In this document: piece by piece, positions 807 to 47,962 of the stretch | Layout: each line of letters starts with the position of its first letter | Numbering within the stretch: position 1 is the first letter of the stretch | Assembly: GCA_964590635.1 (NCBI GenBank) | Contig: CAZPYX010000001.1 | Coordinates: 550-64,549 of the forward strand | DNA: 64,000 nucleotides | DNA from: an uncultured Bdellovibrio sp. | GTDB lineage: Bacteria > Bdellovibrionota > Bdellovibrionia > Bdellovibrionales > Bdellovibrionaceae | Direction: 5' to 3' | The notes under the pieces: generated by a model | Seen by the model: the letters and a program-made list of their open reading frames with translations, nothing else | Database searches by the model: none | What the model was told of the DNA's origin: nothing | Translations under genes and position numbers: made by a program

Positions 807-1871
807 CTAAAACGCGTGGGCAGGATGTGCGCCCAGGATAGCGATGAATTGAAGCTCTAACTTTCTGTCGATTTTATCCGCTTCTTGCGCAACATTCTGA
901 ACTTCATGCGTGTAAGCGATTCGCCAAGTTGAGAACTCACTGGTTTTAAATGTCAGTGTCGGCACAAAGGCGTAATCCAAGTTTTTTTGTCTGTCGTTCG
1001 TGCCTTCGAAATTTTGAGATAAATCAGTAAATGCATCTACGCGAAGACCGAAGGCCCAGTTTTCATTAAAGCCATATTCTGGATAAATATAAGCGCCAAT
1101 TTCTTCGCTGCGATTTGTTTTTGCGCTATTTTGATTTTGATACCAAATTTCTGATTGAAAGAACCAGCGATTGAATTTGCCTTCTTTTTGTTTGAATACG
1201 AAATCCAAACCAGTTAGCTGAGTCCACAAACCTTGAGAATCAGAACGACTTAAATAAGTCGCGCCCATTTGCAAACCCTTGTCAGTTCCCAGATCAAGAA
1301 AAGTGATGGGATGAATGTAGACAACGGGGCTGTCAGGTTTTGCTCTGACACTTTTTTCGCCCCATTGATATCCATCCGTTACGCCCATGGTGATATCCCA
1401 ATAGCTATCTGTCGGAAGAAGATAGCTCATTTCTAAACCGGTATCGTGAATACCTTCCTCTGCGAAGAATTCTTTTTGCACGCGGGGAGCAGAAATAAAG
1501 GGCCAATCATGTTGATGGAATTGATTCAGGCGTCCAACTCCCAAGAAGAAAGTTCCCGCTTTAAAGCGAAAGCCCGGGAATAATTTCGTTGAACTGATAT
1601 ATCCCTCATGAAGCTCGGCCTTGTATTCGCCATTTTCATTGTGAGCTGCGAAGTTGATCAAAGCATCGAAGTAGGGATCCACAGCGCCATAAAGCATAAA
1701 TTCAGCAGAGCGAATTTGCAGCTGATTGTCACTGGAATCATCGAAGTCCATGGGGGCAACGGCATCGATCGCGGCAGAAAAATTTAAGTTCTGCACCAGG
1801 GGAGCTTGCGTCTGGGCAAATGCTTTGGGAGTGAGGGCTATGAAGATAAGTAAACCTAAAAACTTGCGCAT
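807..1871 (-). CDS. Outer-membrane beta-barrel, putative zinc-uptake receptor
   Basis: Signal peptide, amphipathic beta strands, FHQHDW motif and C-terminal GAHPAHAF, typical of barrels encoded with ZnuA-like genes; co-oriented with the binding-protein gene. Confidence 0.75.
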   Translation of the reverse strand: MRKFLGLLIFIALTPKAFAQTQAPLVQNLNFSAAIDAVAPMDFDDSSDNQLQIRSAEFMLYGAVDPYFDALINFAAHNENGEYKAELHEGYISSTKLFPGFRFKAGTFFLGVGRLNQFHQHDWPFISAPRVQKEFFAEEGIHDTGLEMSYLLPTDSYWDITMGVTDGYQWGEKSVRAKPDSPVVYIHPITFLDLGTDKGLQMGATYLSRSDSQGLWTQLTGLDFVFKQKEGKFNRWFFQSEIWYQNQNSAKTNRSEEIGAYIYPEYGFNENWAFGLRVDAFTDLSQNFEGTNDRQKNLDYAFVPTLTFKTSEFSTWRIAYTHEVQNVAQEADKIDRKLELQFIAILGAHPAHAF

Positions 1872-1968
1872 GTTTCCTACTGTCTGTGGGTTTCTTGAGT
1901 CTCACTTCAAAAGCCAGTGTGAACCTCTGCTTTTGAAGATCAACTTGTTTCAAATGGTGTTATGCTAG

Positions 1969-1985
1969 TTGCAAGTTACTTGCAA
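1969..1985. promoter_or_regulatory. Zur/Fur-like operator palindrome
   Basis: TTGCAAG-tta-CTTGCAA, a perfect 7-3-7 inverted repeat upstream of the zinc-uptake genes; resembles the TGCAA-n-TTGCA Zur motif as I recall it for deltaproteobacteria. Confidence 0.6.
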
Positions 1986-2076
1986 TAAAATTAATAGAAA
2001 CACTGCGTAAGCAACTTCGTGTTGCGCACGAAAAGGTTCCTTGCGGGGGTTCCTTAGCTCGACTATGTAAGGGAGC

Positions 2077-3348
2077 ATGATGACAAGCTTTTTAAGAGTC
2101 TTTTGGCCCGAATCGGCAACCCGTATTCAAGGGGTGATTCACTTTCGTTGGATTGCCATTGTCGGTTTGATATTTGGGGCTGTTCCCTTACTTCAAGTAG
2201 GTTATTTACAAAAGACGCAGATGCCTTTTTTGATGGCGGTGATTGCTTTGCTTGCGGTCTTTAATGGTTTGACTCAAGGGATTTGGAGCAAACCGTCAGC
2301 ATCGCAAGAGTCACGAATTTTATTTGTGCAATTATCTGTCGATCTTTTAGCTGCGACTGGGTTGTTATTTGTCAGTGGCTCAGCCAACAATCCTTTTGTC
2401 TTCGTGTTGTGCATTCATGCGTTCCTAGGGGGAATGCTTTTGCGCGGCTATCGCAGTTTGATCTTTGGTTTCTTGGTGCTCTTGTTATTATCGATTCTGC
2501 AGTCAGAGACATTTCAAGACGCCAAGATGACCGTGAATGTTGATACCAGAGAATTGTATTTCCAATTCTTAGCTCAATGGACTGTGATCATCGTTGCATG
2601 GATCGTGGCCTATCTTTTTGCAAACCTTTTGGAAAAACAAGAAAAGCGCATACGTTCTTTGCAAGAACGTCAGCTGAAGGCGGATCGCCTGAAATCCCTG
2701 GGAGCATTGACGGCGGGTTTTTCCCATCAAATGGCCACGCCTTTGAATGCCTTGAAGCTTCGTATGGATCGCGCCGCTCGTAAGTCCGCGCAACAACCGG
2801 AAATTCAAAATGAATTGTCACAGGCTCAAGAATCTTTAAGTGAGTGCATTTCGGTTTTTCATCATATGGCTGGGGTTTTTTCCAATTCAACAGGCGGAGA
2901 CCTTCAGAAGATCAAAGTGAAGTCTTTGGTGTCGGATATTCTTAAAGCCTGGAAACAAGACAATCCTCAAGTGGCAGTGGAAACTCACTTTCAAGAGGAA
3001 GAAGTTTTTTGCCAGATTCAAGCCTTGGCATTTTCACAAACTCTTTTTGATCTTTTAGACAATGCAGCTGAGGCTTCAAATTTTAAAGAAGCTATTTCTT
3101 TGCGACTTTTCACCGAAGGACAAACTTTATCATTGGAAGTGATTGACGCGGGAAAAGGCCTTTCACGAGAGATCATCTCAAGATTAGGCGAACCCTTTGC
3201 AACAGATAAAGAACATGGCAATGGTCTGGGCATTTACACGGCACAGATGTCGGCGCAAGCAATGGGCGGAGAATTTTCTTTGTTTAATAATAAGTCAGGC
3301 AAAGGTGCGACAGCTCGCTTGTCGATTCCTCAGGAAGGTTTGACATGA
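2077..3348 (+). CDS. regB: RegB/PrrB-family sensor histidine kinase
   Basis: About six TM helices, SGSANNPF (GGxxNPF-like), H-box AGFSHQMATP, Cys in SECISVF, N box LLDNAAEA, DAGKG, GNGLG. Confidence 0.8.
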   Translation: MMTSFLRVFWPESATRIQGVIHFRWIAIVGLIFGAVPLLQVGYLQKTQMPFLMAVIALLAVFNGLTQGIWSKPSASQESRILFVQLSVDLLAATGLLFVSGSANNPFVFVLCIHAFLGGMLLRGYRSLIFGFLVLLLLSILQSETFQDAKMTVNVDTRELYFQFLAQWTVIIVAWIVAYLFANLLEKQEKRIRSLQERQLKADRLKSLGALTAGFSHQMATPLNALKLRMDRAARKSAQQPEIQNELSQAQESLSECISVFHHMAGVFSNSTGGDLQKIKVKSLVSDILKAWKQDNPQVAVETHFQEEEVFCQIQALAFSQTLFDLLDNAAEASNFKEAISLRLFTEGQTLSLEVIDAGKGLSREIISRLGEPFATDKEHGNGLGIYTAQMSAQAMGGEFSLFNNKSGKGATARLSIPQEGLT

Positions 3349-3869
3349 AAATTGCGGTGAAAAAACTTTTGCTTGTCGAGGATGACAAACGTCTCCGCTC
3401 GGTTCTTCAGGAAGAACTCACCGAACGTGGTTTTGAAGTTCAAGCTTTTGCAGAATTGCCGTCTTTAAATTCTATCCAAGCTCCTGATGGGGCCCTTCTT
3501 GATTTGCGAGTTGGGCAAGAAAACGGTTTGGATCTAATTGATGGTCTTAGAAAGAAATTTCCAGGCATTCGCATTGTTGTGATGAGTGGTTTTGGCAGTG
3601 TGGCCTCCGCCGTGAAGGCTATGCAATTAGGGGCAGAGAATTTTTTAGCGAAGCCAGTGACGCCAGATATGATTGCAAAAGCTTTTTCGAGTGAGAAAGT
3701 TGCCGAGTTATCCGAAGAAGAATCGGAAATTTCCTTGGCTCGTATGGAGAGGGAATATATCGATTATGTCCTGCAAAACTCAGATGGCAATATCACGCAA
3801 GCTGCCAAAAAATTAGGTCTTCATCGTCAAAGCCTGCAAAGAAAATTGCGCAAGAATATTCCAAAGTAA
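3345..3869 (+). CDS. regA: RegA/PrrA-family response regulator
   Basis: REC domain (VEDD, LLDL, LAKP) plus C-terminal EREYIDYVL..GNITQAAKKLGLHRQSLQRKL HTH; overlaps the kinase stop by 4 nt. Confidence 0.85.
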   Translation: MKIAVKKLLLVEDDKRLRSVLQEELTERGFEVQAFAELPSLNSIQAPDGALLDLRVGQENGLDLIDGLRKKFPGIRIVVMSGFGSVASAVKAMQLGAENFLAKPVTPDMIAKAFSSEKVAELSEEESEISLARMEREYIDYVLQNSDGNITQAAKKLGLHRQSLQRKLRKNIPK

Positions 3870-4015
3870 AAATAGACCAAGCAGATCAACACTGTAATGC
3901 AGCAGGTTGGGGTTGTGACTTTTTTGTCGCTTTTCTTTTAAGCCCTCTGTGGATTTTGAAAGAGTTGACAGGTTTTTCGGCAGGTCCATAATGGCGGAAT
4001 TGCGAGGGCTAAAGC

Positions 4016-5713
4016 TTGGAAGACAAAGTTGCAACTAAAAGACCACTCTCTATTCCCTATTCTGGAACCGCATTGCTGGAGATTTCTTTATTAAATAAGG
4101 GAAGCGCCTTTTCAGAAGAAGAGCGTGTTAATCTCAAACTTTTGGGATTGCTGCCGCAAACAATCGAAACGATCGAAGAACAAGAAAAGCGTGTTTACAG
4201 CCAGTATCGAGAATTTAAATCCGATATCAATAAGCATATTTACTTGCGCAGTATGCAAGACACCAATGAGACTCTGTTCTATCATCTTCTTGATAATCAC
4301 TTAAGCGAGATGCTTCCAATCATTTATACTCCAGTGGTTGGCGAGGCTTGCGAACATTTTTCTGATATTTACCGAGCGGCCCGTGGCCTTTTTATTTCGT
4401 ATCCAAACCGAGATCATATTGATCAGATGTTGGCGAACGTGACCAAACAAAATGTGAAAGTCATTGTCGTCACAGACGGTGAGCGCATCTTGGGCTTGGG
4501 GGATCAGGGTATCGGTGGTATGGGCATTCCTATTGGGAAGTTAGCGCTTTACACTGCTTGCGGAGGAGTCAGTCCAGCTTACACCTTGCCGATTGTTCTT
4601 GATGTGGGAACGAACAATCAACAGTTACTGAATGATCCTTTGTACATGGGATGGCGTCATCCCCGTATTACTGGCGAAGAATATGACAAGTTCGTCGATG
4701 CTTTCATCCAAGCGCTGAAACGTCGCTGGCCTAATGTTCTTCTTCAGTTCGAAGATTTCGCACAAAAAAATGCCGGACCATTGTTGAATCGCTACCGAGA
4801 CGAAATTTGTTGTTTTAACGATGATATTCAAGGAACGGCTTCTGTCGTGTTGGGTTCATTGATTGCAGCGAGTCGTGCGGCGGGAAGTCGTTTGCGTGAT
4901 CAGACGGTCGCATTCTTGGGCGCAGGTTCAGCGGGCTGTGGCATTGCCGAACAAATCGTCGCAGAGATGCAAGCTGAAGGACTGAGTGAATCAGAAGCTC
5001 GTGCACGAGTGTTCATGGTGGATCGATTTGGTTTGTTGACTGATAAGATGCCAAATCTTCTCGACTTCCAAGAAAAGCTTGTTCAGAAAAGCGAGACTCT
5101 TGAAAATTGGAAGATTGAAAAGGACGCGATCTCGTTACTTGAGGTCGTAAAAAATGCGAAGCCCTCTGTTTTGATTGGTGTTTCCGCACAGCCAGGTCTT
5201 TTCACGGAAGAGATCATCCGCACCATGCACCAAAATTGTAAGCGTCCCATTGTGATGCCGCTATCAAATCCGACTTCGCGAGTGGAAGCCCGCCCGGAAG
5301 ACATCATTCAATGGACCGAAGGGGCTGCGTTGGTTGCAACGGGAAGTCCATTCACTCCGGTTCAGTACAATGGTAAAAGTTATCCCGTTGCCCAGTGTAA
5401 TAATTCATATATTTTCCCTGGAGTAGGACTTGGCGTCTTAGCTTCTGGAGCACGTCGTGTGACGGAATCCATGATGATGGCAGCAAGTCGTGCCTTAGCT
5501 GAATGTTCACCGCTTGCAAAAAAAGGTGACGGAGCTTTATTGCCGGCGATTGATGATATTCAAAAAGTTTCACGCATCATTGCCTTTAAAGTCGGGAAAG
5601 CGGCGCAAGCAGCTGACGTTGCTAAAGTCACATCGGATCAAGAGCTAGAAAAGTCTATTGAAGATAATTTCTGGAAGCCTTGGTATCGCAATTATAAGCA
5701 TGTTCCAAAATAG
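4016..5713 (+). CDS. maeA: NAD-dependent malic enzyme (MaeA/SfcA type)
   Basis: [54 protein letters not shown] motifs; 565 aa; TTG start. Confidence 0.95.
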
Positions 5714-5721
5714 ACCTTATG

Positions 5722-5770
5722 AAAAGGCTTAGAGCCAGCGCTTTCGCTGCTCTAAGCATTTCTTCTTTTA
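5722..5770. terminator. Hairpin between convergent genes, probable terminator
   Basis: GCTTAGAG(C)CAGCG / CGCTGCTCTAAGC stem with a 5' A-run and 3' T-runs. Confidence 0.55.
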
Positions 5771-5777
5771 AAATTAA

Positions 5778-6074
5778 TTATGAAGGAGTGGAAACTCCTT
5801 CGGCAGATTCTTGTTGTTGCATTTTGTGATGATGGCTATGCATTTTGAAGCCCGCTTCGGTCATGCATTTCTGTATGACAGTCCGACTTTCCTTATCTAG
5901 GCGTTGACCAGATCCCTTTTCAGGAAGAGTGATATTATTTTTTGCCGCACATTGTTCGAAGGCGGCATGTCTTTGCTCGCGACGTGTTTCTGCTCTGGCG
6001 ACCGGCATAAGATACAAAGACAATAAAGCCATTCCTAAAAAGTTTACGAGACGTTTCTTGCTAAGTGTTTTCAT
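5778..6074 (-). CDS. Small secreted helical protein with two Cys and a His-rich tail
   Basis: Signal peptide ending PVARA; mature part has two Cys and MHSHHHKMQQQ. Confidence 0.75.
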   Translation of the reverse strand: MKTLSKKRLVNFLGMALLSLYLMPVARAETRREQRHAAFEQCAAKNNITLPEKGSGQRLDKESRTVIQKCMTEAGFKMHSHHHKMQQQESAEGVSTPS

Positions 6075-6584
6075 AAAAAAACCTTTCTTTTGTTAGGAGC
6101 GTCAAAGGGGCCCAAGCTTTGGCGCCTAAAAGCTGGGCCTTGATAAAATGTTAAAAGCAGATTTTGGAACAAGCGTGGAAGAGCAGGATGAGACTTAAAA
6201 TAAATTATTTGCAATCTAAGTGATCCGAGAACGTAGTTGCATTATTAGTCTGAAGAAATCCTCAAATTTTAGAATCTCTTTACTGACTATGAACTTATAG
6301 GGATTTTAATACGTACGTTCTTGCTATCATCTTGTCTCATGTTGACTCAAGTTATGGGCCAGTCTTGTGATGTTGACCTATTAGGGGCGCATACTAAAGT
6401 CTGATGGCACCACATTTGAGTTTTTAATCCGACTAAGTTCAATTTTAAAATCACGGGTCCCACATGGGTGACGATGGTTCTGTCAATTCGTCCTATGTGA
6501 CTGGTAGAGGGCGAGTCACTTCAGATACAACGAGCTCGGCAATATATCGGTGACAAGGTTGCTATCGTTTGGAACTAAAATTTT

Positions 6585-8590: not shown

Positions 8591-8654
8591 GGAAAAGAGT
8601 GCCTGCTTCTTTCTCCGAGAAAGTAGCAGGCACCTTTTCCGAAAAGGTACCAGG
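8591..8654. repeat. Degenerate REP-like palindrome (GGTAC/GGTGC family)
   Basis: GGAAAAGAGTGCCTGCTTCTTTCTC paired with GAGAAAGTAGCAGGCACCTTTTCC, followed by a partial GAAAAGGTACCAGG; shares the GT(A/G)CCTGCT core with the copies at 32966 and 33619. Confidence 0.7.
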
Positions 8655-8677
8655 TGTTCCGAAAATTGTTTTGGGGC

Positions 8678-8711
8678 AAAAAAAAGCCCCGGTTTTGCCG
8701 GGGCTTTTTTT
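8678..8711. terminator. Bidirectional intrinsic terminator
   Basis: A-run, GCCCCGG-tttt-GCCGGGGC, T-run at the stop of the sigma54 regulator. Confidence 0.85.
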
Positions 8712-10236
8712 AGTTAACGTAGTCTTTTGCGACGATTCCGTATTTTTCGATCTTACGAAGAAGCGTCTTCTTCGGGATGTTGGCGTGAAGAGCCGTTTGA
8801 TTGATACGACCTCGGAATGTTTTAAGAGCTTTGATAATAAACTCTTTTTCGAAGGCTTCTTTTTGCGCATTGAAATCTAAACTTTCGTTGCCAGAATAAG
8901 GAACAATTTCTTCGCCATCAAGATCGGCAGAGTCATCGCCCATATCAGCATCTTCATCGTCACCCAAAGTGGCGTGAGCTTTGACCGCCGCTGACATTCC
9001 TGCAGAGGCAATATTCGCAGCCGTCTCCATAACAGGTGGTACATCGATCAAATTAGTTCCAGTTGCAAATAGCAAAGACTCAGGCAACGAAGCGATCGTG
9101 ATGATGTTTGTCATCTCAAGAACGAAAGCGTGTTCGATCACGTTTTCGAGCTCACGAATATTTCCCGGCCAAGCATGCTTTTTCAAAACGGACATCGCAT
9201 CTGGAGCGATTCCATTGATACGTTTGCCATGGGCAACATTGAACTTCTTGATAAAGATGTTCACCATGTGCTCCATGTCGTCTTTGCGTTCAGCCAAGGC
9301 AGGCAAGAATATAGGTACAACGTTCAAACGATAGAACAAGTCTTCACGGAATGTTCCCGCTTTGATCATGTCTTCCAGAGGTCTGTTAGTCGCGGCGATA
9401 ATACGAACATTCGCAGGGAATTCTCTGTTTGAACCTACTGGAGTGAAAAGCTTTTCTTGAAGAACGCGAAGGATTTTAACTTGCATGAGTTGAGGCATGT
9501 CGCCCACTTCATCCAAGAATAAAGTTCCGCCTTCAGCATATTGAAACTTCCCAATTTTGCGCTGATCAGCGCCTGTGAAAGAACCCTTTTCGTGACCAAA
9601 TAATTCAGATTCGAAAAGATTTTCTGGGATTGCAGAGCAGTTGATCGCAACGAATTTTTCGTCTTTGCGAGCCGAGTTAAAGTGAATTGCTTTAGCTACA
9701 AGTTCTTTACCTGTACCTGAAGAACCACGAATCAGCACTGGCGTGTCAACTTTAGCAAGACGGTGAATGATGTTAAATACCTTCTGCATTTGTGAGGTGT
9801 TGCCGATGATCTTGCGACCGGCTTCAACCATCACAGGAGCAGAGGCTGCCACATTTGAGATCAAGTTGTGAGCGTTTACAGCTTTGTCGATCAAAGCCAA
9901 CATGTCTTCGCTAGCTACGGGTTTTGCGAGATAGTTGTAGGCACCATCTTTAACAGCTTGAATAGCATCATTCAAAGTCGCATGTGCTGTCATTACGATG
10001 ACGATAATACCAGGATTGAATTCTTTGATTTGGCGAAGGGCTTCAAGACCGTTCATGCGAGGCATGTCGACGTCTAAGATCACAACGTCGTAGTTTTTGT
10101 CACCGGCTTTGATTTTCTCCATCGCATTGACACCGTCGAAAGCTTCGTCGATATCAAAACGTTGAGTGATAGCTAAGGCTGATTTTACCGAAAGTCTTAG
10201 ACCTTGATCGTCATCGACAACTAGGACCTTAAGCAT
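8710..10236 (-). CDS. NtrC-family sigma54-dependent response regulator
   Basis: REC (VVDDD, LDVDMP), Walker A GSSGTGKE, ESELFGHEKGSFTGA, FLDEV, WPGNIREL, acidic linker, Fis-type HTH. Confidence 0.95.
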   Translation of the reverse strand: MLKVLVVDDDQGLRLSVKSALAITQRFDIDEAFDGVNAMEKIKAGDKNYDVVILDVDMPRMNGLEALRQIKEFNPGIIVIVMTAHATLNDAIQAVKDGAYNYLAKPVASEDMLALIDKAVNAHNLISNVAASAPVMVEAGRKIIGNTSQMQKVFNIIHRLAKVDTPVLIRGSSGTGKELVAKAIHFNSARKDEKFVAINCSAIPENLFESELFGHEKGSFTGADQRKIGKFQYAEGGTLFLDEVGDMPQLMQVKILRVLQEKLFTPVGSNREFPANVRIIAATNRPLEDMIKAGTFREDLFYRLNVVPIFLPALAERKDDMEHMVNIFIKKFNVAHGKRINGIAPDAMSVLKKHAWPGNIRELENVIEHAFVLEMTNIITIASLPESLLFATGTNLIDVPPVMETAANIASAGMSAAVKAHATLGDDEDADMGDDSADLDGEEIVPYSGNESLDFNAQKEAFEKEFIIKALKTFRGRINQTALHANIPKKTLLRKIEKYGIVAKDYVN

Positions 10237-12109
10237 GAATACCCCCGTGCTTGATTGGCAGTTCTACCGTAAAAGTGGATCCATTTCCATAATTAGATTC
10301 TACGGAAAGATTTCCTTTGTGTAGCTCTGTAAAATATTTAGCCAAGTAGAGCCCTAGCCCCGAACCCTTGATAGGCGAACTCTTGGCATTTTTACTTCTA
10401 AAAAACTTCATAAAGATATTATTGAGCTCTTCGGCAGGGATGCCGGGCCCCTGGTCGGCGACTTGAATGACGACTTTCTCATCTTTTTCCTCGCTGCTGA
10501 CCATGATTTTCGTGTCTTCTGGAGAGTACTTAATGGCGTTCTCTACCAGATTCGAAAGAACTTGTTTCATGAGGTCAGAATCCATAGGAATTGGAAACAT
10601 TGGTTCGAGCTCTGAAACGATTTGGATGCGTTTTACTTTAGCTAAAAACTCATGCTTACGGATGACTTCTTTAAGGACGTTGTTAATGTCCTTACTTTGC
10701 AGATGAAGTTGCACACCTTCGCTCTCAATTCGACCGTAATTGAGGATGGCGCTGATGAATTTCAATAAATCATCGGCAGAGTGCTTGATCGTATCGACAG
10801 CCTCACGCTGCTGAGAGCTGACAGGGTTTGCGTCTGTCAGAATAACTTCAGTCATTCCCTGAATGCGCGCAATCGGCGTCTTCAGATCATGGGACATCAT
10901 AGAGATAAAGTTCGTCTTAAGCTCTTCAACTTGGCTCAAGAGTTTATTCTTCTGATAATATTCCCAACTACGGCGATTTTCGACAATCAAGCGGTAGGGG
11001 ATGAAGAAGTAGTAGCAGAGGAGGCCTGCCAAAAGTGGATGAGCCATTGGAATCCAGAGGCCGAAAACCCAATAGAGAGCAAAACAAACGACAGTAAATC
11101 CACCCAGGGAACCAACCAAGATCAAAAGACCTTTTGTCGGTTTCATAGTAAGGACAGTCTGAATTGTTAAGAAAGCGATAACGAAAAGCAAAATCCAATT
11201 TATATAACTAGGTAATTTTACCGGACCTGAATTGCGAATGAGGGTATCAATGATATTCGCCTGCATCTCAATGCGAGTCATAGCGGTTGGTGAACGATCT
11301 AGAGGAGTTCTAATGTACTCTTGTTCATTCAGGTTGAGATCCGTACCAATAAGAACGATTTTGTCTTTGAATCGATCTGCATTTATTTTTCCACTTAGGA
11401 CATCTTCAAATGAAGATGAGGGAAATGTATTTTGCTTATGGTAGTCGATATAAGCTTGGTCTGTATCGTAAAAGAGGAAGTGTCCACGTACATTTTCTGG
11501 AGAAATAATCTCAGGATTGAAAAGGCTAGCTAGTTGAACTTGCAACATAGGTGAGCCTTGGAATGTAAGAATCATTCTTCTTGTAACGCTATCTTTTGCA
11601 AAGTTTAGAACATCGGCTGTTTTTGGAGCCGGAACGGATTTTACTTGCTCGAGAGGGTCCGGGAGATAGAGGCTTTTCTCCTCTCCTTTAAGTACAGTCG
11701 CCTTTGATGCAACAAAAACATTTTTATTCGCTACGATGACAGCTTCCCAGCTGTTTTTACTGTCCACATTGCCGGCTGACTCATCAACTGCGAAGTCATA
11801 AACGATGGCTTTGGCGTTGGAGGCTAGGATATTTTTAAGCAGTTGCTTTTGTGCTGCCGCATCCGGAAGACCCTTAAATTTTTGAACTGTATTAGGAGTA
11901 ATATAAATGAGTTCAATTTTATCAGAACTTGGAGTAAGGAGCTTGGTTTCTACGCGAACGTCAAAAAGCCAAGATTCAATGAACTCCAAATGAAGTTGAG
12001 CGATAAGAAATGCCATCCCCACCGCGAACAGAGCTCGCAGTGCAAAAGTACGATATTGGCTTCGCTTGGAAGCTCTTAATGTCTCTTCAGGGGAGGGAGG
12101 AAGAGTCAT
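10229..12109 (-). CDS. CHASE2-domain sensor histidine kinase
   Basis: N-terminal TM; periplasmic domain with TRRMIL and FKDKIVLIG..TP..MTRIEMQANIIDTL (CHASE2-like); three TM; SHDLKTP; NLVENAIKYS; DQGPGI; GSGLGL. Confidence 0.88.
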   Translation of the reverse strand: MTLPPSPEETLRASKRSQYRTFALRALFAVGMAFLIAQLHLEFIESWLFDVRVETKLLTPSSDKIELIYITPNTVQKFKGLPDAAAQKQLLKNILASNAKAIVYDFAVDESAGNVDSKNSWEAVIVANKNVFVASKATVLKGEEKSLYLPDPLEQVKSVPAPKTADVLNFAKDSVTRRMILTFQGSPMLQVQLASLFNPEIISPENVRGHFLFYDTDQAYIDYHKQNTFPSSSFEDVLSGKINADRFKDKIVLIGTDLNLNEQEYIRTPLDRSPTAMTRIEMQANIIDTLIRNSGPVKLPSYINWILLFVIAFLTIQTVLTMKPTKGLLILVGSLGGFTVVCFALYWVFGLWIPMAHPLLAGLLCYYFFIPYRLIVENRRSWEYYQKNKLLSQVEELKTNFISMMSHDLKTPIARIQGMTEVILTDANPVSSQQREAVDTIKHSADDLLKFISAILNYGRIESEGVQLHLQSKDINNVLKEVIRKHEFLAKVKRIQIVSELEPMFPIPMDSDLMKQVLSNLVENAIKYSPEDTKIMVSSEEKDEKVVIQVADQGPGIPAEELNNIFMKFFRSKNAKSSPIKGSGLGLYLAKYFTELHKGNLSVESNYGNGSTFTVELPIKHGGIHA

Positions 12110-12136: not shown

Positions 12137-12250
12137 CTATTTAACAGGAATACACTCATTGCCACCGCCTAAGCCAGGAGATGATCCAAAGCTAGGAGTA
12201 GTCTTAACGGGCTTTACCTTTTTAATATGTTTAGTAGTTTGAGTTGTCAT
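12137..12250 (-). CDS. Putative RiPP precursor peptide, 37 aa: MTTQTTKHIKKVKPVKTTPSFGSSPGLGGGNECIPVK
   Basis: Below the ORF-track cut-off; translated by hand. GAGGT RBS 5 nt before the ATG; ATG lies 11 nt after the radical SAM stop; TAG is 27 nt before the kinase ATG. Confidence 0.8.
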   Translation of the reverse strand: MTTQTTKHIKKVKPVKTTPSFGSSPGLGGGNECIPVK

Positions 12251-12261
12251 CGTGTACCTCA

Positions 12262-13542
12262 TTAGCAGGCTTCCCTGCATTTTTTGTAGAATAATAAAGT
12301 TGTGCCAAGCAAGTCTTGCATACGCGAGCAGAATTGTTTGTTCTTTGTATTTTTAGAGCCAGATCCTTGTTTGTGGATAAACATGCATCCTCCGCCGCAC
12401 AAGTAGCGTGCCCAGCATGTCTGGCAATTATTTTGTTCGATAAGTGAATCAGTGTACTTTTTTAAGGCCGCATTGTCCAACACGCTACCTTGTCCAACCT
12501 GTTCATTTTTTTGTCCAACGTCCCATGGGCACGTGAATAGACCATTTTTTGCATCAACAACTAAGAACGACTTTCCAGCGCCACAGAAATTCTCTGTTCT
12601 GCGTTGATCGTCTAGAGAAGAAAAAATATTATCGAAGAAGCCAATTTGTCTTAGACCGGCTTCGCCTAAATTTTCATAAGCATACTCGGCAATTTGATGC
12701 ATTTGTTGCGCAAAGATCTTGCTGCTTTTTTCGTCAGCGGCTTCAACGCCATAAGTGAATTCATATTTATCGGCCGGGAAATTGCGATAGAAGTTGTATG
12801 CTTCGATGAGGTTCATATTTTCATCATGAAAAACGCCATGCAAAGAAATCGAACCCAGTTGCTCTTTGTTTGCAAATAACATTTTTAGTCCCTCAGTGAC
12901 GATGGCAGAACTGCCCTGGCCATTCTTCAAGGGACGTACTTTGTCGTTAATATATTCCGGTCCATCAACACTTACAGTGATGTGGCATTTGATATCTTTG
13001 AGCAACTGAAGTGTTGTTTCATTGATCAAAGTTCCATTTGTGACGATCGCAAAATATGCCTTAAGGTCTTTTTCTGAGGTAAACGCCTTAACATATTGTG
13101 CAATGGCTCGAATTCCCTCTGGGTAGAGAAGGGGCTCTCCGCCAAGGAAAGTAATTTTAAAACTTTGCCCTGCAGAAAGCTGCTCTAGGAAAAATTTTAA
13201 TTGAGGCAAAGTCTTTTCAACAGAAATCTTCGTTTGTGGAGACCCATAGGTTCCGTCTCCACCGGCCGCGCAGTAAGTGCATTTCAGATTGCAAATTTGG
13301 GTGACATTGATCGTAAGGCTGCGAATACCGAATGCCAACTTTCCAGAGGAAACTTCCAAGTTGTTCTCATTGTTCCATGTAGCCAAAGATTCCTGAAGTT
13401 CTGAGTTCTTAATTTCGGAACCCAGTTCTTGCCAAAGCTCATCAGAGATCTCCGCGACTTCCAAATTTCGGGCGTGGAAAGCTATCGGAGCTTGTTGGCC
13501 CCATTTGAATGCTATGATGTCGTTTTGTCTCCGAGTTTCCAC
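12262..13542 (-). CDS. Radical SAM/SPASM peptide maturase (CteB/PapB-like)
   Basis: CNLKCTYC, FLGGEPLL, VTNGTL and a seven-Cys SPASM (CGAG..CPW..CQTC..CGGGC..C); about 70 aa of N-terminal RRE-like region. Start uncertain: the track gives 13674, but a sigma54 promoter inside that extension points to GTG 13542. Confidence 0.88.
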   Translation of the reverse strand: METRRQNDIIAFKWGQQAPIAFHARNLEVAEISDELWQELGSEIKNSELQESLATWNNENNLEVSSGKLAFGIRSLTINVTQICNLKCTYCAAGGDGTYGSPQTKISVEKTLPQLKFFLEQLSAGQSFKITFLGGEPLLYPEGIRAIAQYVKAFTSEKDLKAYFAIVTNGTLINETTLQLLKDIKCHITVSVDGPEYINDKVRPLKNGQGSSAIVTEGLKMLFANKEQLGSISLHGVFHDENMNLIEAYNFYRNFPADKYEFTYGVEAADEKSSKIFAQQMHQIAEYAYENLGEAGLRQIGFFDNIFSSLDDQRRTENFCGAGKSFLVVDAKNGLFTCPWDVGQKNEQVGQGSVLDNAALKKYTDSLIEQNNCQTCWARYLCGGGCMFIHKQGSGSKNTKNKQFCSRMQDLLGTTLLFYKKCREAC

Positions 13543-13553
13543 ACCCAAAGTGC

Positions 13554-13570
13554 TAGCAATAGATGTACCA
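13554..13570 (-). promoter_or_regulatory. Sigma54 (-24/-12) promoter for the radical SAM operon
   Basis: Minus strand TGGTAC-ATCTA-TTGCTA; GG-N10-GC spacing with one mismatch to TGGCAC-N5-TTGCW. Confidence 0.7.
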
Positions 13571-13703
13571 CTTTGAGAAATACTTGGCTGGCCGAATAAG
13601 ATGAGTAAAATCAATAATTTAGAATATATTTGGAGGTGGTATTTTGAGCCATATTTTGATGGAAGTGGGGTCAAAATGAAACTATTGCAGGTATGACCAT
13701 CAG

Positions 13704-13738: not shown

Positions 13739-15418
13739 ATGCTTAATCACCATGTGACGACAGCCCACAACTATAAGGAATTTCCGCAATCAGTTGTCGT
13801 AAAAAATACTGTGGACGAGAAAGTTGGAGGAAGAGATGGTCGAATTCGACGATTTGTTCTTAGCATGGACGGTGAATCACTTGATTCCGATTTAGAACGT
13901 TTTCAGAAGCAATTAGGAATTGAGACCAGACCCTTACAAGAATATCAGAACTACTTTCTGTTATCTGGATCGAAGCAAATCTATTTGAGATTGTATGATC
14001 CTAAATCAATTTTGACTTTGCTGCCTGGTCAGATCGAGAAGAAGGGATCAGATCTAGCAGGGAAGATTCTATTTGTTGGAAGTCACGACCAGCATTCCTT
14101 TTATTTGCACAAGTCAATTTCTGGAAGATTTGTTTTAAATGACTCTCAATCAATGGAGTATATGATTTCAGATGCATCCTATCTTGTTAATGCTTTGGAA
14201 AATTTGCGAAGTTTAAATTATATCAAGATGCCGCCGCAATCAGTGAACGTGCTTTGGATCACGGTTTTTGTTGCAATTAATGTCTTTCTTCTATTTATTT
14301 TAAGTCCGTTTTCTTTCATTGTAGCCTCATTTGTTTATCCAATTTTATTTTTCGCTTTGAATTGTTCGATATTTGAATTTGTACAATTTAATTTAGATAT
14401 AAGTAGAGTTTTGTTCTGCGGTCTTTTAATTCAATATATAGGCGTTCCAATTTTACTAATGCGCTACTTGAGACGAGTTGACTCTGAAAAACTTCAGGCA
14501 GAGAAGGAAAGAGCTGTTGATAAGGTCAAATCACGTTTTATTGTTAAGGTCGCAAAGGCTGATCTGAGTTTGCAAATGGCAGCAAGAGTATCGCATGATA
14601 TTCGCAGCCCATTGATGGCTTTGCAGGTCGCAAATTCATTCATTAAGGGCAAGATTTCAGAAGATTTAGAATCTCTCATTCATGAATCTACTCTGAGACT
14701 TAAATTTATTGCCGAAGATATTCTCGACGGCTATCGAGAAGGAAAAGTGGGAGTACGTCCAACTGAGCGAACGGCAATAAAAGAAGTTCTTGAAGAGCTA
14801 TTGAAGTCTTACCGAACCTTGAATCCCGATGTAAAATTTGAATTAGAAGTTGCAGATAATATTGTGACGTTCATTCCCTCATATAGTTTACAAAGATGTC
14901 TTTCAAATTTATTCAATAATTCGATCGAAGCTTTTGAAAACTCATGTGAAACGGTACTTATTTCTGCCAGCCATATCGATGCGAAGAAGGGCAGCTGTTT
15001 CATTATTAATTTGCCTGAAGCTCTTTCTCGAGTTCCCTTGGCAATCACGTCCAACGTTTTAGTTGTAGAGTCTGGGCAAGAGATTTACACCGCGTTGAGA
15101 AATACCGGAAATGTATCTCTGCATATGCGGCAGGAGAGAACTGTTGAGGCAGCACATAATGCCTTGCGCGAGTTTGGTGGGAAATGGACTGTGTTCATTG
15201 ATCTCTCTTTGTCAGATGAAGAATCTGGCTTTGACTTAATAGAAGTATTGGGTGAGAGCTTTTCAGGAAAGGTAATTCTTTGTTCAGTTTTTGCAGACAA
15301 CATGGAAGTGCAAGAAATCGCAAATCGTTACGATGCACTTCTTTTGAATAAAGAACTGTTGCCTCGTTTAGAGTTGATTGTGAGTAACCAAAATTCTATC
15401 CGAGGCAATTCAACTTAG
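13739..15418 (+). CDS. Degenerate hybrid histidine kinase (partial CHASE2-like region, TMs, HisKA, truncated HATPase, atypical REC)
   Basis: DGRIRRFVL, three TM, VSHDIRSP, NLFNNSIEA then almost directly KKGSCFIINLP with no DxGxG; C-terminal VLVVES..FIDLSL..LLNK. AT-rich. Confidence 0.7.
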   Translation: MLNHHVTTAHNYKEFPQSVVVKNTVDEKVGGRDGRIRRFVLSMDGESLDSDLERFQKQLGIETRPLQEYQNYFLLSGSKQIYLRLYDPKSILTLLPGQIEKKGSDLAGKILFVGSHDQHSFYLHKSISGRFVLNDSQSMEYMISDASYLVNALENLRSLNYIKMPPQSVNVLWITVFVAINVFLLFILSPFSFIVASFVYPILFFALNCSIFEFVQFNLDISRVLFCGLLIQYIGVPILLMRYLRRVDSEKLQAEKERAVDKVKSRFIVKVAKADLSLQMAARVSHDIRSPLMALQVANSFIKGKISEDLESLIHESTLRLKFIAEDILDGYREGKVGVRPTERTAIKEVLEELLKSYRTLNPDVKFELEVADNIVTFIPSYSLQRCLSNLFNNSIEAFENSCETVLISASHIDAKKGSCFIINLPEALSRVPLAITSNVLVVESGQEIYTALRNTGNVSLHMRQERTVEAAHNALREFGGKWTVFIDLSLSDEESGFDLIEVLGESFSGKVILCSVFADNMEVQEIANRYDALLLNKELLPRLELIVSNQNSIRGNST

Positions 15419-17367
15419 TGAACTTTAAACTCACCGGTTTCGTCAGTAAACAAGCGAAGATCAAAAGAGCGGTCGGTGATGACGCGTTGGATGTACATGA
15501 GGGACTTATACAGCTCTTCTTGGTCGAAATTGCCGAAGCGATAAGAGATTGTATCTACGCCTTTTGCAGAGAAAGTCATTTCGTAAGCAATCAGAGATTG
15601 AACTTGGTTGGCGGGGATTAGTGATAACAGGAAGCCACCACCATATTGCTGCCAAAGAGGGAAGTCTTTAAGTTCCTTGAATGACTTGTAACGAGCTTCT
15701 GAGGTTTCCGCAGGATTGAAGATCACTGCCAAAGACCTTGCGACATATGAGATGTCCAAATCATAACGATCTAAACCAAATGATCTGTTGTCATCGCCGT
15801 AAGGACCTTGCTCGCGGGGTGGCATTTTTGGGGTTCCATGGGTTTTGATGAAGTTATAAAGACGTACTTTCGCCAATGGATAGTCCAATGTGGGAATCGC
15901 ACGCAAAGCATTTGGATGGAAGAAGATCTCGTTACTAAAGTAGCCATTGACGTGACTGCCATTAGAGAAATCCCATTTTTTCCAATCAATGCGTGCATAT
16001 TCTTCGGCTGGGATCACGGACTTCACGTGTTCTTGGATGTCTTTGTAGTCACCCTTTGAAACGTTCTTCATCTTCATTTCACGGCCCAGTGTTAATGCGA
16101 CAAAGTCGCGAATGATCCAACTGTCGTCAGAAGAGAAAAGCATATTCGTCGTGATGCGATTTTCATCTCCGAACAATCCAAAGATAGCTTTCACTTTCTT
16201 GTTTGTTTGGAATGTATCCATGATGTATTTTTGCTCTTTGTCGTCGCGGTCCACGTGTACCACTTTATTTTGCGCATAAGTAGAGCCCGCTTCAAAACGC
16301 AGAATATTCAAACCAAATTTGAATGAAGAATCCGTGCTTAAAGATTCGTTGGAACCTTTGAAAATGCGATCAATTCGACGTTTGAAAGGCTCGAGTTCAT
16401 GATCTTCTTTTACGATATCTTCAACAACTGAAAGATCTGTTAACAGATCTTCTTTAACAACAGCACTTTTTTCGATCGGGTTGATAAACGCAAGATCTTT
16501 AAAGCGTGTTTTCTTGTGAATAAGATCGTTGTAGGCCTGTGCCGCTTGGGAATTATTGAGGTCAAAGACATAGTCTAGCATGAAGAGATTGTTCGCACTT
16601 CTGCCGGTACCAAGGATGAGTGGATCTAGATCGATCCAACTTTTGATTCTATTATCTAAGTATTTGAAACCAACAATTTTGAAGTTTCCAAAGTTGACGT
16701 TGCCGTCAGCTCCCATGCCTTTTCCGCGAATTGCGATGAGCTTCACACGCAGCTTGTTGTTGGACATTCTAAATGTATGAATTAAGAACTCACCAGAGAC
16801 ATACGCATGAGTAGAGGCTCCAACATTGCCGATGGCCGTTAAAGGTGCATTCGCACCGAGCGAAACCACAAAGGAAAGTTTGCCAGTCATGGCGACGAAA
16901 TCCCCTGGATTCAAATTGCGAATGGCTTGCTCTGCAGAAAGCGGTAAGTTCTTAGGTCCATAGGGTAAAGCAGTTAAAGAGTCGACTTGCTTCTTAAATT
17001 GACGGGCAAAAATGATCTCTGAGTTATTATTGATTCCGAATCCTAGAGGCAAGTCATTGCCATCAATAAAATCCCCTGGATTTGCATCAAGGTCTAATGA
17101 GTATCTGTCGAGACGGGTGTAATAACCATCGACATAGGAAGGCTCAGATTGGATTTTGTATTTAATCGCAGCAGAGAGTCCATCGAAAACGTTGGCATCG
17201 ACGATGTTAACTGTAGCTCCAACTTTTTGTTTTGCGATGATGTTCTTAACTCGCGTGGCAACCTTAGAGGGCTCGAGGAAATCAAGACCTCCAGCATGAG
17301 CTGGTAACGCCGAAAATAACAGACCCGATGATAGGGTCACAGATAGTACATGTTTGGCGATAGTCAT
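15415..17367 (-). CDS. Secreted hypothetical protein, 650 aa
   Basis: Signal peptide ending PAHA, GGAGG RBS, no family recognised. Confidence 0.85.
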   Translation of the reverse strand: MTIAKHVLSVTLSSGLLFSALPAHAGGLDFLEPSKVATRVKNIIAKQKVGATVNIVDANVFDGLSAAIKYKIQSEPSYVDGYYTRLDRYSLDLDANPGDFIDGNDLPLGFGINNNSEIIFARQFKKQVDSLTALPYGPKNLPLSAEQAIRNLNPGDFVAMTGKLSFVVSLGANAPLTAIGNVGASTHAYVSGEFLIHTFRMSNNKLRVKLIAIRGKGMGADGNVNFGNFKIVGFKYLDNRIKSWIDLDPLILGTGRSANNLFMLDYVFDLNNSQAAQAYNDLIHKKTRFKDLAFINPIEKSAVVKEDLLTDLSVVEDIVKEDHELEPFKRRIDRIFKGSNESLSTDSSFKFGLNILRFEAGSTYAQNKVVHVDRDDKEQKYIMDTFQTNKKVKAIFGLFGDENRITTNMLFSSDDSWIIRDFVALTLGREMKMKNVSKGDYKDIQEHVKSVIPAEEYARIDWKKWDFSNGSHVNGYFSNEIFFHPNALRAIPTLDYPLAKVRLYNFIKTHGTPKMPPREQGPYGDDNRSFGLDRYDLDISYVARSLAVIFNPAETSEARYKSFKELKDFPLWQQYGGGFLLSLIPANQVQSLIAYEMTFSAKGVDTISYRFGNFDQEELYKSLMYIQRVITDRSFDLRLFTDETGEFKVH

Positions 17368-17410: not shown

Positions 17411-17426
17411 TGCAAGTGAAGTGCCT
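17411..17426 (-). promoter_or_regulatory. Sigma54 promoter for the 650-aa protein gene
   Basis: Minus strand AGGCAC-TTCAC-TTGCA, GG-N10-GC, 43 nt upstream of the ATG. Confidence 0.65.
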
Positions 17427-17580
17427 CTTTAAAGAGGTTTTTATTATCACTCGCAGTCCAAAGGATTTCTTAAATACTCGGTCTGTCGAAAAGTTAAACA
17501 GAGATTGAAGAGGGCGGTGGGTGGAATTGACGCAAACTTCAACCAAAAGTAAGTCCGTACCTTTTGCGTTTTACTAGCAA

Positions 17581-47945: not shown

Positions 47946-47962
47946 TTGGCATTTGTGTTGCT
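47946..47962 (+). promoter_or_regulatory. Sigma54 promoter of the fliL operon
   Basis: TTGGCATTTGTGTTGCT, GG-N10-GC. Confidence 0.75.

Follow-up and report, generated by a model that had tools for sequence, protein, structure and literature searches.

A 64,000-nt stretch of DNA from an uncultured Bdellovibrio sp. (contig CAZPYX010000001.1; the whole stretch is referred to below as the window) carries on its minus strand an operon of four genes, encoding a radical SAM maturase, a short precursor peptide, a CHASE2 sensor histidine kinase, and a sigma-54-dependent response regulator. Our analysis makes it quite likely that a sigma-54 promoter at 13570-13555 drives all four genes, down to an intrinsic terminator at 8708-8678, that transcription begins at 13544-13542, and that translation of the maturase truly begins at GTG 13542, the mRNA being nearly leaderless. 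Sigma-54 promoters and leaderless mRNAs are both known; what appears to be new is their combination in one Bdellovibrio operon. Searches of the literature on Bdellovibrio with sigma-54, RpoN, radical SAM, and CHASE2, and on leaderless mRNAs with sigma-54, turned up neither this operon nor any leaderless transcript made by sigma-54.

The promoter element, TGGTAC-ATCTA-TTGCT, corresponds to the minus-strand letters TGGTACATCTATTGCT. Its GG (13569-13568) and GC (13557-13556) are spaced by exactly 10 nt, as expected for the sigma-54 arrangement (GG-N10-GC within TGGCAC-N5-TTGCW). As the initial annotation had noticed, the element lies inside the extended 5' part of a mechanically predicted open reading frame (ORF; 13674..12262, TTG start, 470 aa). 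Sigma-54 transcription begins about 12 nt downstream of the -12 GC, and the start near 13544 proposed at that time is arithmetically right (-12 C at 13556 plus 12 nt). By itself, a single consensus match is no evidence of a promoter: the degenerate pattern TGGHAY-N5-TTGCW occurs twice in the window against 0.71 occurrences expected, a number reached by 16 of 100 shuffles, and the whole genome has 50 occurrences where about 28 would be expected. The match gains its significance from its conservation in all orthologues at a fixed spacing from the start codon and from the RNA 5' ends of Bdellovibrio bacteriovorus HD100. The organism also has the required machinery, as rpoN was found by profile search (455.6 bits vs a cut-off of 277) together with AAA+ enhancer-binding proteins, one of them encoded in the operon. 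A sigma-70 promoter was considered as an alternative and discarded, since no promoter-like site was found on the minus strand between 13540 and 13740.

An orthologue of the maturase was detected in nearly every genome of the genus when 40 relatives were searched, and conservation was evaluated in 22 oriented loci of the main Bdellovibrio clade, including that of the window. The pattern TGG[T/A]A[C/T]-N5-TTGC[A/T] was present in all 22, with the TGG, the AC, and the ATTGC invariant in the alignment, and in every case the distance from the -12 C to the same conserved start codon was 14-18 nt (14 nt in the window). The 12-16 nt that separate the motif from the start codon, on the other hand, vary in length and are nearly random in composition (1.3-1.97 bits per position). 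The genes upstream of the operon differ between genomes. In five more distant loci, from a second clade and from two other families of the order, the promoter is also kept, but it is followed by a leader of about 20-35 nt with a Shine-Dalgarno sequence. Because the promoter accompanies a normal leader in these loci, sigma-54 control would be an ancient trait of the operon, and the leaderless geometry would be derived in the main clade. The second clade is paralogous in at least one genome: G020 carries both a main-clade leaderless copy (L005) and a second-clade copy with a leader (L025) of the maturase-peptide system, from which it follows that the two clades are paralogous systems.

Evidence on the transcript comes from HD100 (genome of 3,782,950 bp; loci L015/L030), for which many RNA-seq runs exist and whose maturase (CAE78160.1) is 61% identical to that of the window. 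In this organism the promoter TGGAACGCTTATTGCA is located at 1472-1487 of the locus, with the -12 C at 1486 and the ATG at 1501. RNA contigs had their 5' end at 1499-1500 in runs X4, X7, and X8 of study P2 and in X10 of study P4, at 1503 in X5 and X6 of study P3, and at 1513 in X11, also of study P3. In three studies, then, the transcript was seen to begin 1-2 nt before the ATG (four runs) or 2 nt into it (two more), which is 13-14 nt and 17 nt, respectively, from the -12 C. These positions agree with the distance of about 12 nt from the GC that is typical of sigma-54, and a 5' end at 1499-1503 with the ATG at 1501 coincides with the start codon or nearly so, as in leaderless mRNAs. Depth was zero over 1368-1485 in X4, X5, X6, X8, and X10, against 68-770 downstream. 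In X7, a single contig of 4,901 nt (1499-6399) contained the maturase, peptide, kinase, and regulator genes and ended 61 nt past the regulator stop codon; the contigs of X4 and X7 end 27-61 nt after that stop.

Some irregularities in depth were also observed in HD100. In X10 the depth falls past the peptide gene (414 to 194) and in X4 past the kinase gene (771 to 371; L030 2962-2991 and ~4822-4851), while in X10 and X16 the transcript extends about 650-800 nt beyond the regulator. Partial attenuation and read-through may account for these features, contig depth being a poor measure of expression.

By homology with HD100, the transcription start in the window is predicted at 13542..13544 (minus strand), 12-14 nt after the -12 C. 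Transcription would then begin on GTG 13542 or 1-2 nt before it, with a leader of 0-2 nt. A near-leaderless sigma-54 transcript in the window is well supported by this orthology, and the almost leaderless maturase mRNA that had been suggested from the window alone is borne out by the HD100 contigs, which begin 1-2 nt before the ATG in four runs and 2 nt into it in two more.

The position of the start codon is indicated independently by the way in which the sequences have diverged. GTG 13542-13540, in frame with the ORF 13674..12262 and 14 nt past the -12 C, is homologous to the codon at which, in the 22-locus alignment, the entropy drops abruptly from 1.3-1.9 bits to 0.44, 0, and 0, and from codon 2 onward the low, low, high pattern of coding sequence is followed. 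The N-terminus M/V-E-x-R-R-x-x-D-I-(I/V)-A-F is kept in the 22 loci, the orthologous maturases align from residue 1, and the HD100 record CAE78160.1 begins at the ATG homologous to GTG 13542. The start codon is ATG in 20 loci and GTG in the other two (the window and L004). Upstream of it, the open frame runs for 1 to 68 codons depending on the orthologue, and in three orthologues (L005, L007, and L013) it is closed by an in-frame stop 1-2 codons before the start. Given the jump in entropy at GTG 13542 and an unconserved extension interrupted by stops, the 44 codons by which the ORF is extended are very probably not coding. The public gene call for this genome, identified by exact look-up, starts at TTG 13614 (450 aa), 24 codons upstream of the conserved start, and so begins before the sigma-54 promoter and crosses it; the mechanical start, TTG 13674, falls inside a conserved non-coding block, the left enhancer arm described below. 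Both the 44-codon extension and the 450-aa call thus appear to be artefacts running across the promoter. The later start that had been proposed for the maturase is well supported by the codon-periodic conservation that sets in at GTG 13542.

The gene model should therefore be corrected to a maturase of 426 aa (12262..13542, minus strand), without a Shine-Dalgarno sequence, in place of 450 or 470 aa. The stretch removed is a false hydrophobic N-terminus that could pass for a signal peptide. Exact look-up found no public record of maturase versions of 426, 428, or 470 aa. The ORF matches the Radical_SAM family of Pfam (1.7e-18), and the corrected protein is of the radical SAM/SPASM type; its best NCBIfam matches were PapB (174 bits), nif11-type (171 bits), and SCIFF (126 bits), all far below the cut-offs. 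In these maturase profiles there is room for only about 20-55 residues ahead of the part that matched, and the start is accordingly expected near residue 23-55 of the 470-aa ORF.

Downstream of the maturase, the second gene encodes the precursor peptide of 37 aa, MTTQTTKHIKKVKPVKTTPSFGSSPGLGGGNECIPVK (12137..12250, minus strand), preceded by its own ribosome-binding site, GAGGT. A peptide of the family KHIKK(V/I)KP...C(I/V)P follows the maturase in 27 of 28 loci, and no NCBIfam model matches the 37-aa sequence. The third gene (10229..12109, minus strand; ribosome-binding site AAGGA) encodes a sensor histidine kinase of 626 aa with the Pfam domains CHASE2, HisKA, and HATPase_c, of which CHASE2 is extracytoplasmic by family annotation. 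As had been stated in the initial annotation, the operon ends in a sigma-54 activator: the last gene (8710..10236, minus strand) encodes a response regulator composed of receiver, sigma-54 AAA+, and HTH_8 domains, the candidate activator of its own promoter. The GSFTGA loop (residues 218-223, window 9585-9568) had also been read accurately. It is, however, an ordinary variant, present in 4 of the 11 activators of this genome, and was discarded as the mark of an unusual activator. Directly after the regulator stop codon lies the intrinsic terminator, AAAAAGCCCCGG-CAAAA-CCGGGGCTTTTTTTT (8678..8708, minus strand), a perfect hairpin between an A-run and a T-run that looks bidirectional and closes the operon; the stretch that contains it, 8600-8712, folds at -47.7 kcal/mol (z = -5.6). 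The operon itself encodes neither an exporter nor a leader peptidase.

Upstream of the promoter, the alignment reveals further conserved blocks. The left arm of a candidate enhancer (upstream activating sequence), GTTTCATTTTGACC (13669..13682, minus strand), is found 126-142 nt before the start codon with 0-2 mismatches in 21 of the 22 main-clade loci, and similar blocks occur in the second clade. About 33 nt from it, or three helical turns, is the candidate right arm, GCTCAAAATACCAC (13636..13649, minus strand), an inverted copy of the left one; 11 of the 22 loci have it, with 0-2 mismatches, at -107 to -111. Conservation thus extends to the half-site GTnTnnTTTTGnCC near -140 and to its inverted form near -108, and similar half-sites also appear in the distant loci; by eye, both arms of the window have TTTTGA/TCAAAA in place of TTTTGC/GCAAAA. 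Between the enhancer and the promoter lies an IHF-like bend site, TAAATTATTGATT (13609..13621, minus strand), the reverse complement of WATCAANNNNTTR, so that the IHF consensus is exact on the other strand. By eye, the consensus is also exact in some orthologues, and the block TAA-N5-TGA(A/T)-TTACT is conserved in the alignment. The genome has four genes of the HU/IHF family. Relative to the transcription start, the inverted repeat is at about -95 to -140 and the IHF-like site at about -65 to -77. Enhancer, bend site, and -24/-12 element would thus form the classical layout of a sigma-54 control region, with the arms as candidate activator sites: the phosphorylated regulator would bind the inverted repeat at 13682-13636, and a bend at 13621-13609 would help it to open the sigma-54 closed complex. 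The possibility that the inverted repeat functions as an RNA structure was discarded, because the region has no RNA coverage in HD100 and the search against Rfam found no family match.

Several other sigma-54-like motifs were noted during the analysis. The second consensus match in the window is TGGCATTTGTGTTGCT (47947-47962, plus strand), 94 nt before an ORF of 179 aa which in our view is FliL-like; it may serve as a sigma-54 promoter for flagellar genes, followed by a leader of ordinary length. The sequence AGGCAC-TTCAC-TTGCA (17412-17427, minus strand) is about 45 nt before the ATG of a gene for a secreted orphan protein of 650 aa (15415-17367), which has a GGAGG ribosome-binding site. In two second-clade genomes (L024 and L026), the gene for a homologue of this orphan has the same orientation as the paralogous maturase operon and ends immediately before it; in the window, a divergent gene for a kinase-like protein of 559 aa separates the two. 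Elsewhere in the same genome (C219, ~5190-5100, minus strand), the sigma-54 motif TGGCATATCATTTGCT is preceded by an inverted repeat, ACATTTTG-N34-TCAAAATG, that resembles the arms of the operon, and is followed by the gene of a secreted protein of 423 aa. This orphan was considered as a second member of the regulon and rejected, having no homologue in 25 relatives and a co-occurrence that is at most suggestive, since with the defining site left out it is not significant (p of about 0.17 by our own estimate from the per-site probability). In HD100, a further sigma-54 motif, TGGTATGTCCTTTGCT (L034, G011:C1:631475), is preceded by the palindrome GTCTCATTTTGAGAC. In many orthologues, the first half of this palindrome, GTCTCATT, is likewise found ahead of the -24 element in the maturase promoter.

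Whether the operon activates itself, as the initial annotation had inferred, was examined in the light of these data. In HD100 the transcript made from the promoter includes the regulator gene (the X7 contig 1499-6399), and in two samples of a single study the entire operon, with its kinase and regulator genes, was at ~264 (X16) and at 1-13 (X18), a change of more than 20-fold, while the upstream flank remained at 557-711 in both runs. A change of this size beside a steady flank indicates that the operon switches as a unit. If the loop is closed, the operon would amplify its own kinase and regulator, as glnALG does, with a gene order as in agrBDCA. Three observations weigh against autoregulation: there are about 14 strong Sigma54_activat genes in the genome, the right arm is weaker in the MEIRRQ subclade, and a scan for the basal kinase and regulator promoter that a feedback loop needs found none, its matches being at chance level. 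It is possible, if rather doubtful, that the promoter and the leaderless start are real but that another of these enhancer-binding proteins is the activator, the operon regulator controlling other targets with no direct feedback. In favor of this explanation are the number of activators in the genome and the similar repeat and sigma-54 motif before the unrelated C219 orphan gene, which show that such a site also occurs outside the operon. Against it, the regulator is the only DNA-binding protein of the operon, promoter and upstream repeat travel with the operon across families, and the kinase and regulator rise and fall together with the maturase. Moreover, operons of the glnALG type normally activate themselves from a sigma-54 promoter. 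On this circumstantial support, we lean towards self-activation by the operon's own regulator as the plausible interpretation, with the regulator as candidate activator. The comparison with autoinducer systems made in the initial annotation, with the modified peptide as the signal sensed by the CHASE2 kinase, is speculative.

The near-leaderless sigma-54 transcript must itself be weighed against several points. The 5' ends are those of Logan contigs, not primary ends validated with terminator exonuclease (TEX), and they scatter over 1499-1513; run X12, from another strain, has a contig of 38 kb that crosses the promoter, which may be DNA or pervasive coverage and read-through; and the start site is carried over to the window from an orthologue with the identity given above. 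In addition, an in-frame TTG at 13548, 6 nt upstream of the GTG, would be a possible start if the transcription start were shifted, and non-AUG codons are inefficient on leaderless mRNAs in E. coli (cited in PMC3616915).

From the last of these points it might be argued that the window species differs from HD100, for example by using TTG 13548 or having a longer leader from a promoter of its own, so that its mRNA would not be leaderless. In E. coli, GTG initiates leaderless mRNAs weakly; TTG 13548 lies only two codons upstream in the same frame; and RNA runs were found for HD100 while the search for runs containing the window stretch returned no RNA, only DNA runs from rock metagenomes. Nevertheless, we regard such a difference as improbable, since the 14-nt spacing of the window is within the range of its orthologues (14-18 nt), TTG 13548 is only 8 nt past the -12 C and too close for a sigma-54 start, and neither codon has a Shine-Dalgarno sequence before it, just as the strand has no sigma-70-like site. 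Still less probable is that the HD100 5' end results from the processing of a longer transcript from an upstream promoter, the conserved motif not being a promoter at all. RNA-seq contigs cannot separate primary from processed ends, and the X12 contig does cross the region, but processing would have to explain zero coverage for at least 115 nt upstream in five runs with a downstream depth of up to 770-fold, as well as an end exactly 13-14 nt past a GG-N10-GC element that 22 loci share without variation; besides, upstream neighbors that differ between genomes provide no shared upstream promoter. Finally, a chance match inside a maturase whose hydrophobic N-terminal extension is real, with TTG 13614 or 13674 as the start, although some 0.7 matches are expected per window and the public call uses TTG 13614, can practically be dismissed in view of an extension that is unconserved in length and sequence and stop-interrupted in orthologues, the entropy jump at GTG 13542, the lack of RNA over the homologous region of HD100, and the start near residue 23-55 of the 470-aa ORF to which the NCBIfam profiles point.

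With the promoter and the start placed in this way, the first cistron would be translated as a leaderless or near-leaderless message without a Shine-Dalgarno sequence, and the peptide and kinase cistrons from their ordinary ribosome-binding sites. The unconserved spacer, which is mostly upstream of the start site, and the 5'-proximal start codon are both as expected for leaderless translation. A 5'-terminal AUG, which efficient 70S binding requires in E. coli, is replaced by GTG in the window. GUG leaderless starts are known in other phyla, and the GTG lowers the efficiency expected of leaderless initiation but does not exclude the mechanism; the output may be low here. A plausible rationale would be one of stoichiometry, a weakly translated catalytic maturase being placed ahead of a strongly translated substrate peptide. 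That leaderless translation is used in the genus is clear from the contig ends of the neighboring lspA gene in HD100 (L030 8282-8297), where the contigs of X7 and X10 start exactly on the A of the ATG. This gene has a TATACT -10 box 7 nt before the ATG and gives a classical sigma-70 leaderless mRNA; lspA of the window (7697) has a GAGG ribosome-binding site instead. A genome-wide class of leaderless sigma-54 genes was also considered and rejected. In the window's own genome, C224 has a normal leader with a Shine-Dalgarno sequence, C124 is a contig-end case, and the others are not genes, while in HD100 the strict pattern with an ATG within 10-17 nt gave three sites, of which only that of this operon opens a real ORF.

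The operon can be compared with four kinds of known systems. In glnALG of enteric bacteria, as here, a sigma-54 promoter (glnAp2) precedes an enzyme gene, a kinase and an NtrC-family activator follow on the same transcript, and enhancer sites ~100-140 nt before the start complete an architecture that permits positive autoregulation. Unlike the maturase, glnA has a normal leader and a Shine-Dalgarno sequence, and basal ntrBC expression comes from known sigma-70 promoters, whereas none was identified at the Bdellovibrio operon; the sensor is the cytoplasmic NtrB and not a CHASE2 membrane kinase, and the enhancer TGCACC-N5-GGTGCA is unrelated to GTnTnnTTTTGnCC. The agrBDCA operon of staphylococci (promoter P2) has the same order of processing enzyme, precursor peptide, membrane kinase, and regulator, all behind one promoter, which in agr is activated by the operon's own regulator, a candidate role in Bdellovibrio. 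The agr promoter, however, is a sigma-70 promoter and the regulator a LytTR protein, and AgrB is a membrane protease while the enzyme here belongs to the radical SAM group and the operon has no exporter. From both glnALG and agrBDCA, the operon differs in an enhancer-dependent promoter that would be placed so as to give an mRNA with no leader.

Leaderless mRNAs, such as those of lambda cI and of many Mycobacterium, Deinococcus, and archaeal genes, likewise have a 5' end within 1-2 nt of the start codon and no Shine-Dalgarno sequence, the conserved start codon being their first functional RNA element. In Sinorhizobium meliloti, 171 such mRNAs have been mapped (PMC3616915), and where genome-wide mapping of start sites has yielded leaderless mRNAs as well as RpoN promoters, the leaderless ones are tied to sigma-70-like or extended -10 motifs (PMC3616915, PMC4842269). 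The described leaderless mRNAs thus come from promoters of the sigma-70 type, unlike the enhancer-dependent sigma-54 promoter of Bdellovibrio, and in the window the start codon is, in addition, GUG. Finally, the SCIFF/CteB and PapB ranthipeptide cassettes share with the operon a SPASM maturase whose N-terminal ~80 residues form a leader-recognition region, next to a short precursor containing Cys. The Bdellovibrio peptide, however, has a single Cys, in its C(I/V)P motif, and matches no model, and a CHASE2 kinase and a sigma-54 regulator are not part of those cassettes.

As a general interpretation, we tentatively propose that, in the whole of the main Bdellovibrio clade, enhancer-dependent sigma-54 makes a leaderless first cistron, and that this cistron belongs to an agr-like loop: the modified peptide, sensed by the CHASE2 kinase, re-induces the operon. 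If so, a tight off/on promoter would be combined with a maturase that is translated weakly, lacking a Shine-Dalgarno sequence, and a peptide substrate that is translated strongly. HD100, a culturable organism with public RNA-seq, would then be the first tractable one found with transcript-end evidence for leaderless mRNAs made by sigma-54. The public RNA-seq of this model predator indicates that a sigma-54 promoter can be positioned to start the mRNA at the start codon or right next to it. The value of the finding lies chiefly in its direct testability in HD100: the control region of the operon is now defined by a candidate enhancer, a candidate bend site, a promoter, and a start site, with which both self-activation and peptide signaling can be tested in that organism.

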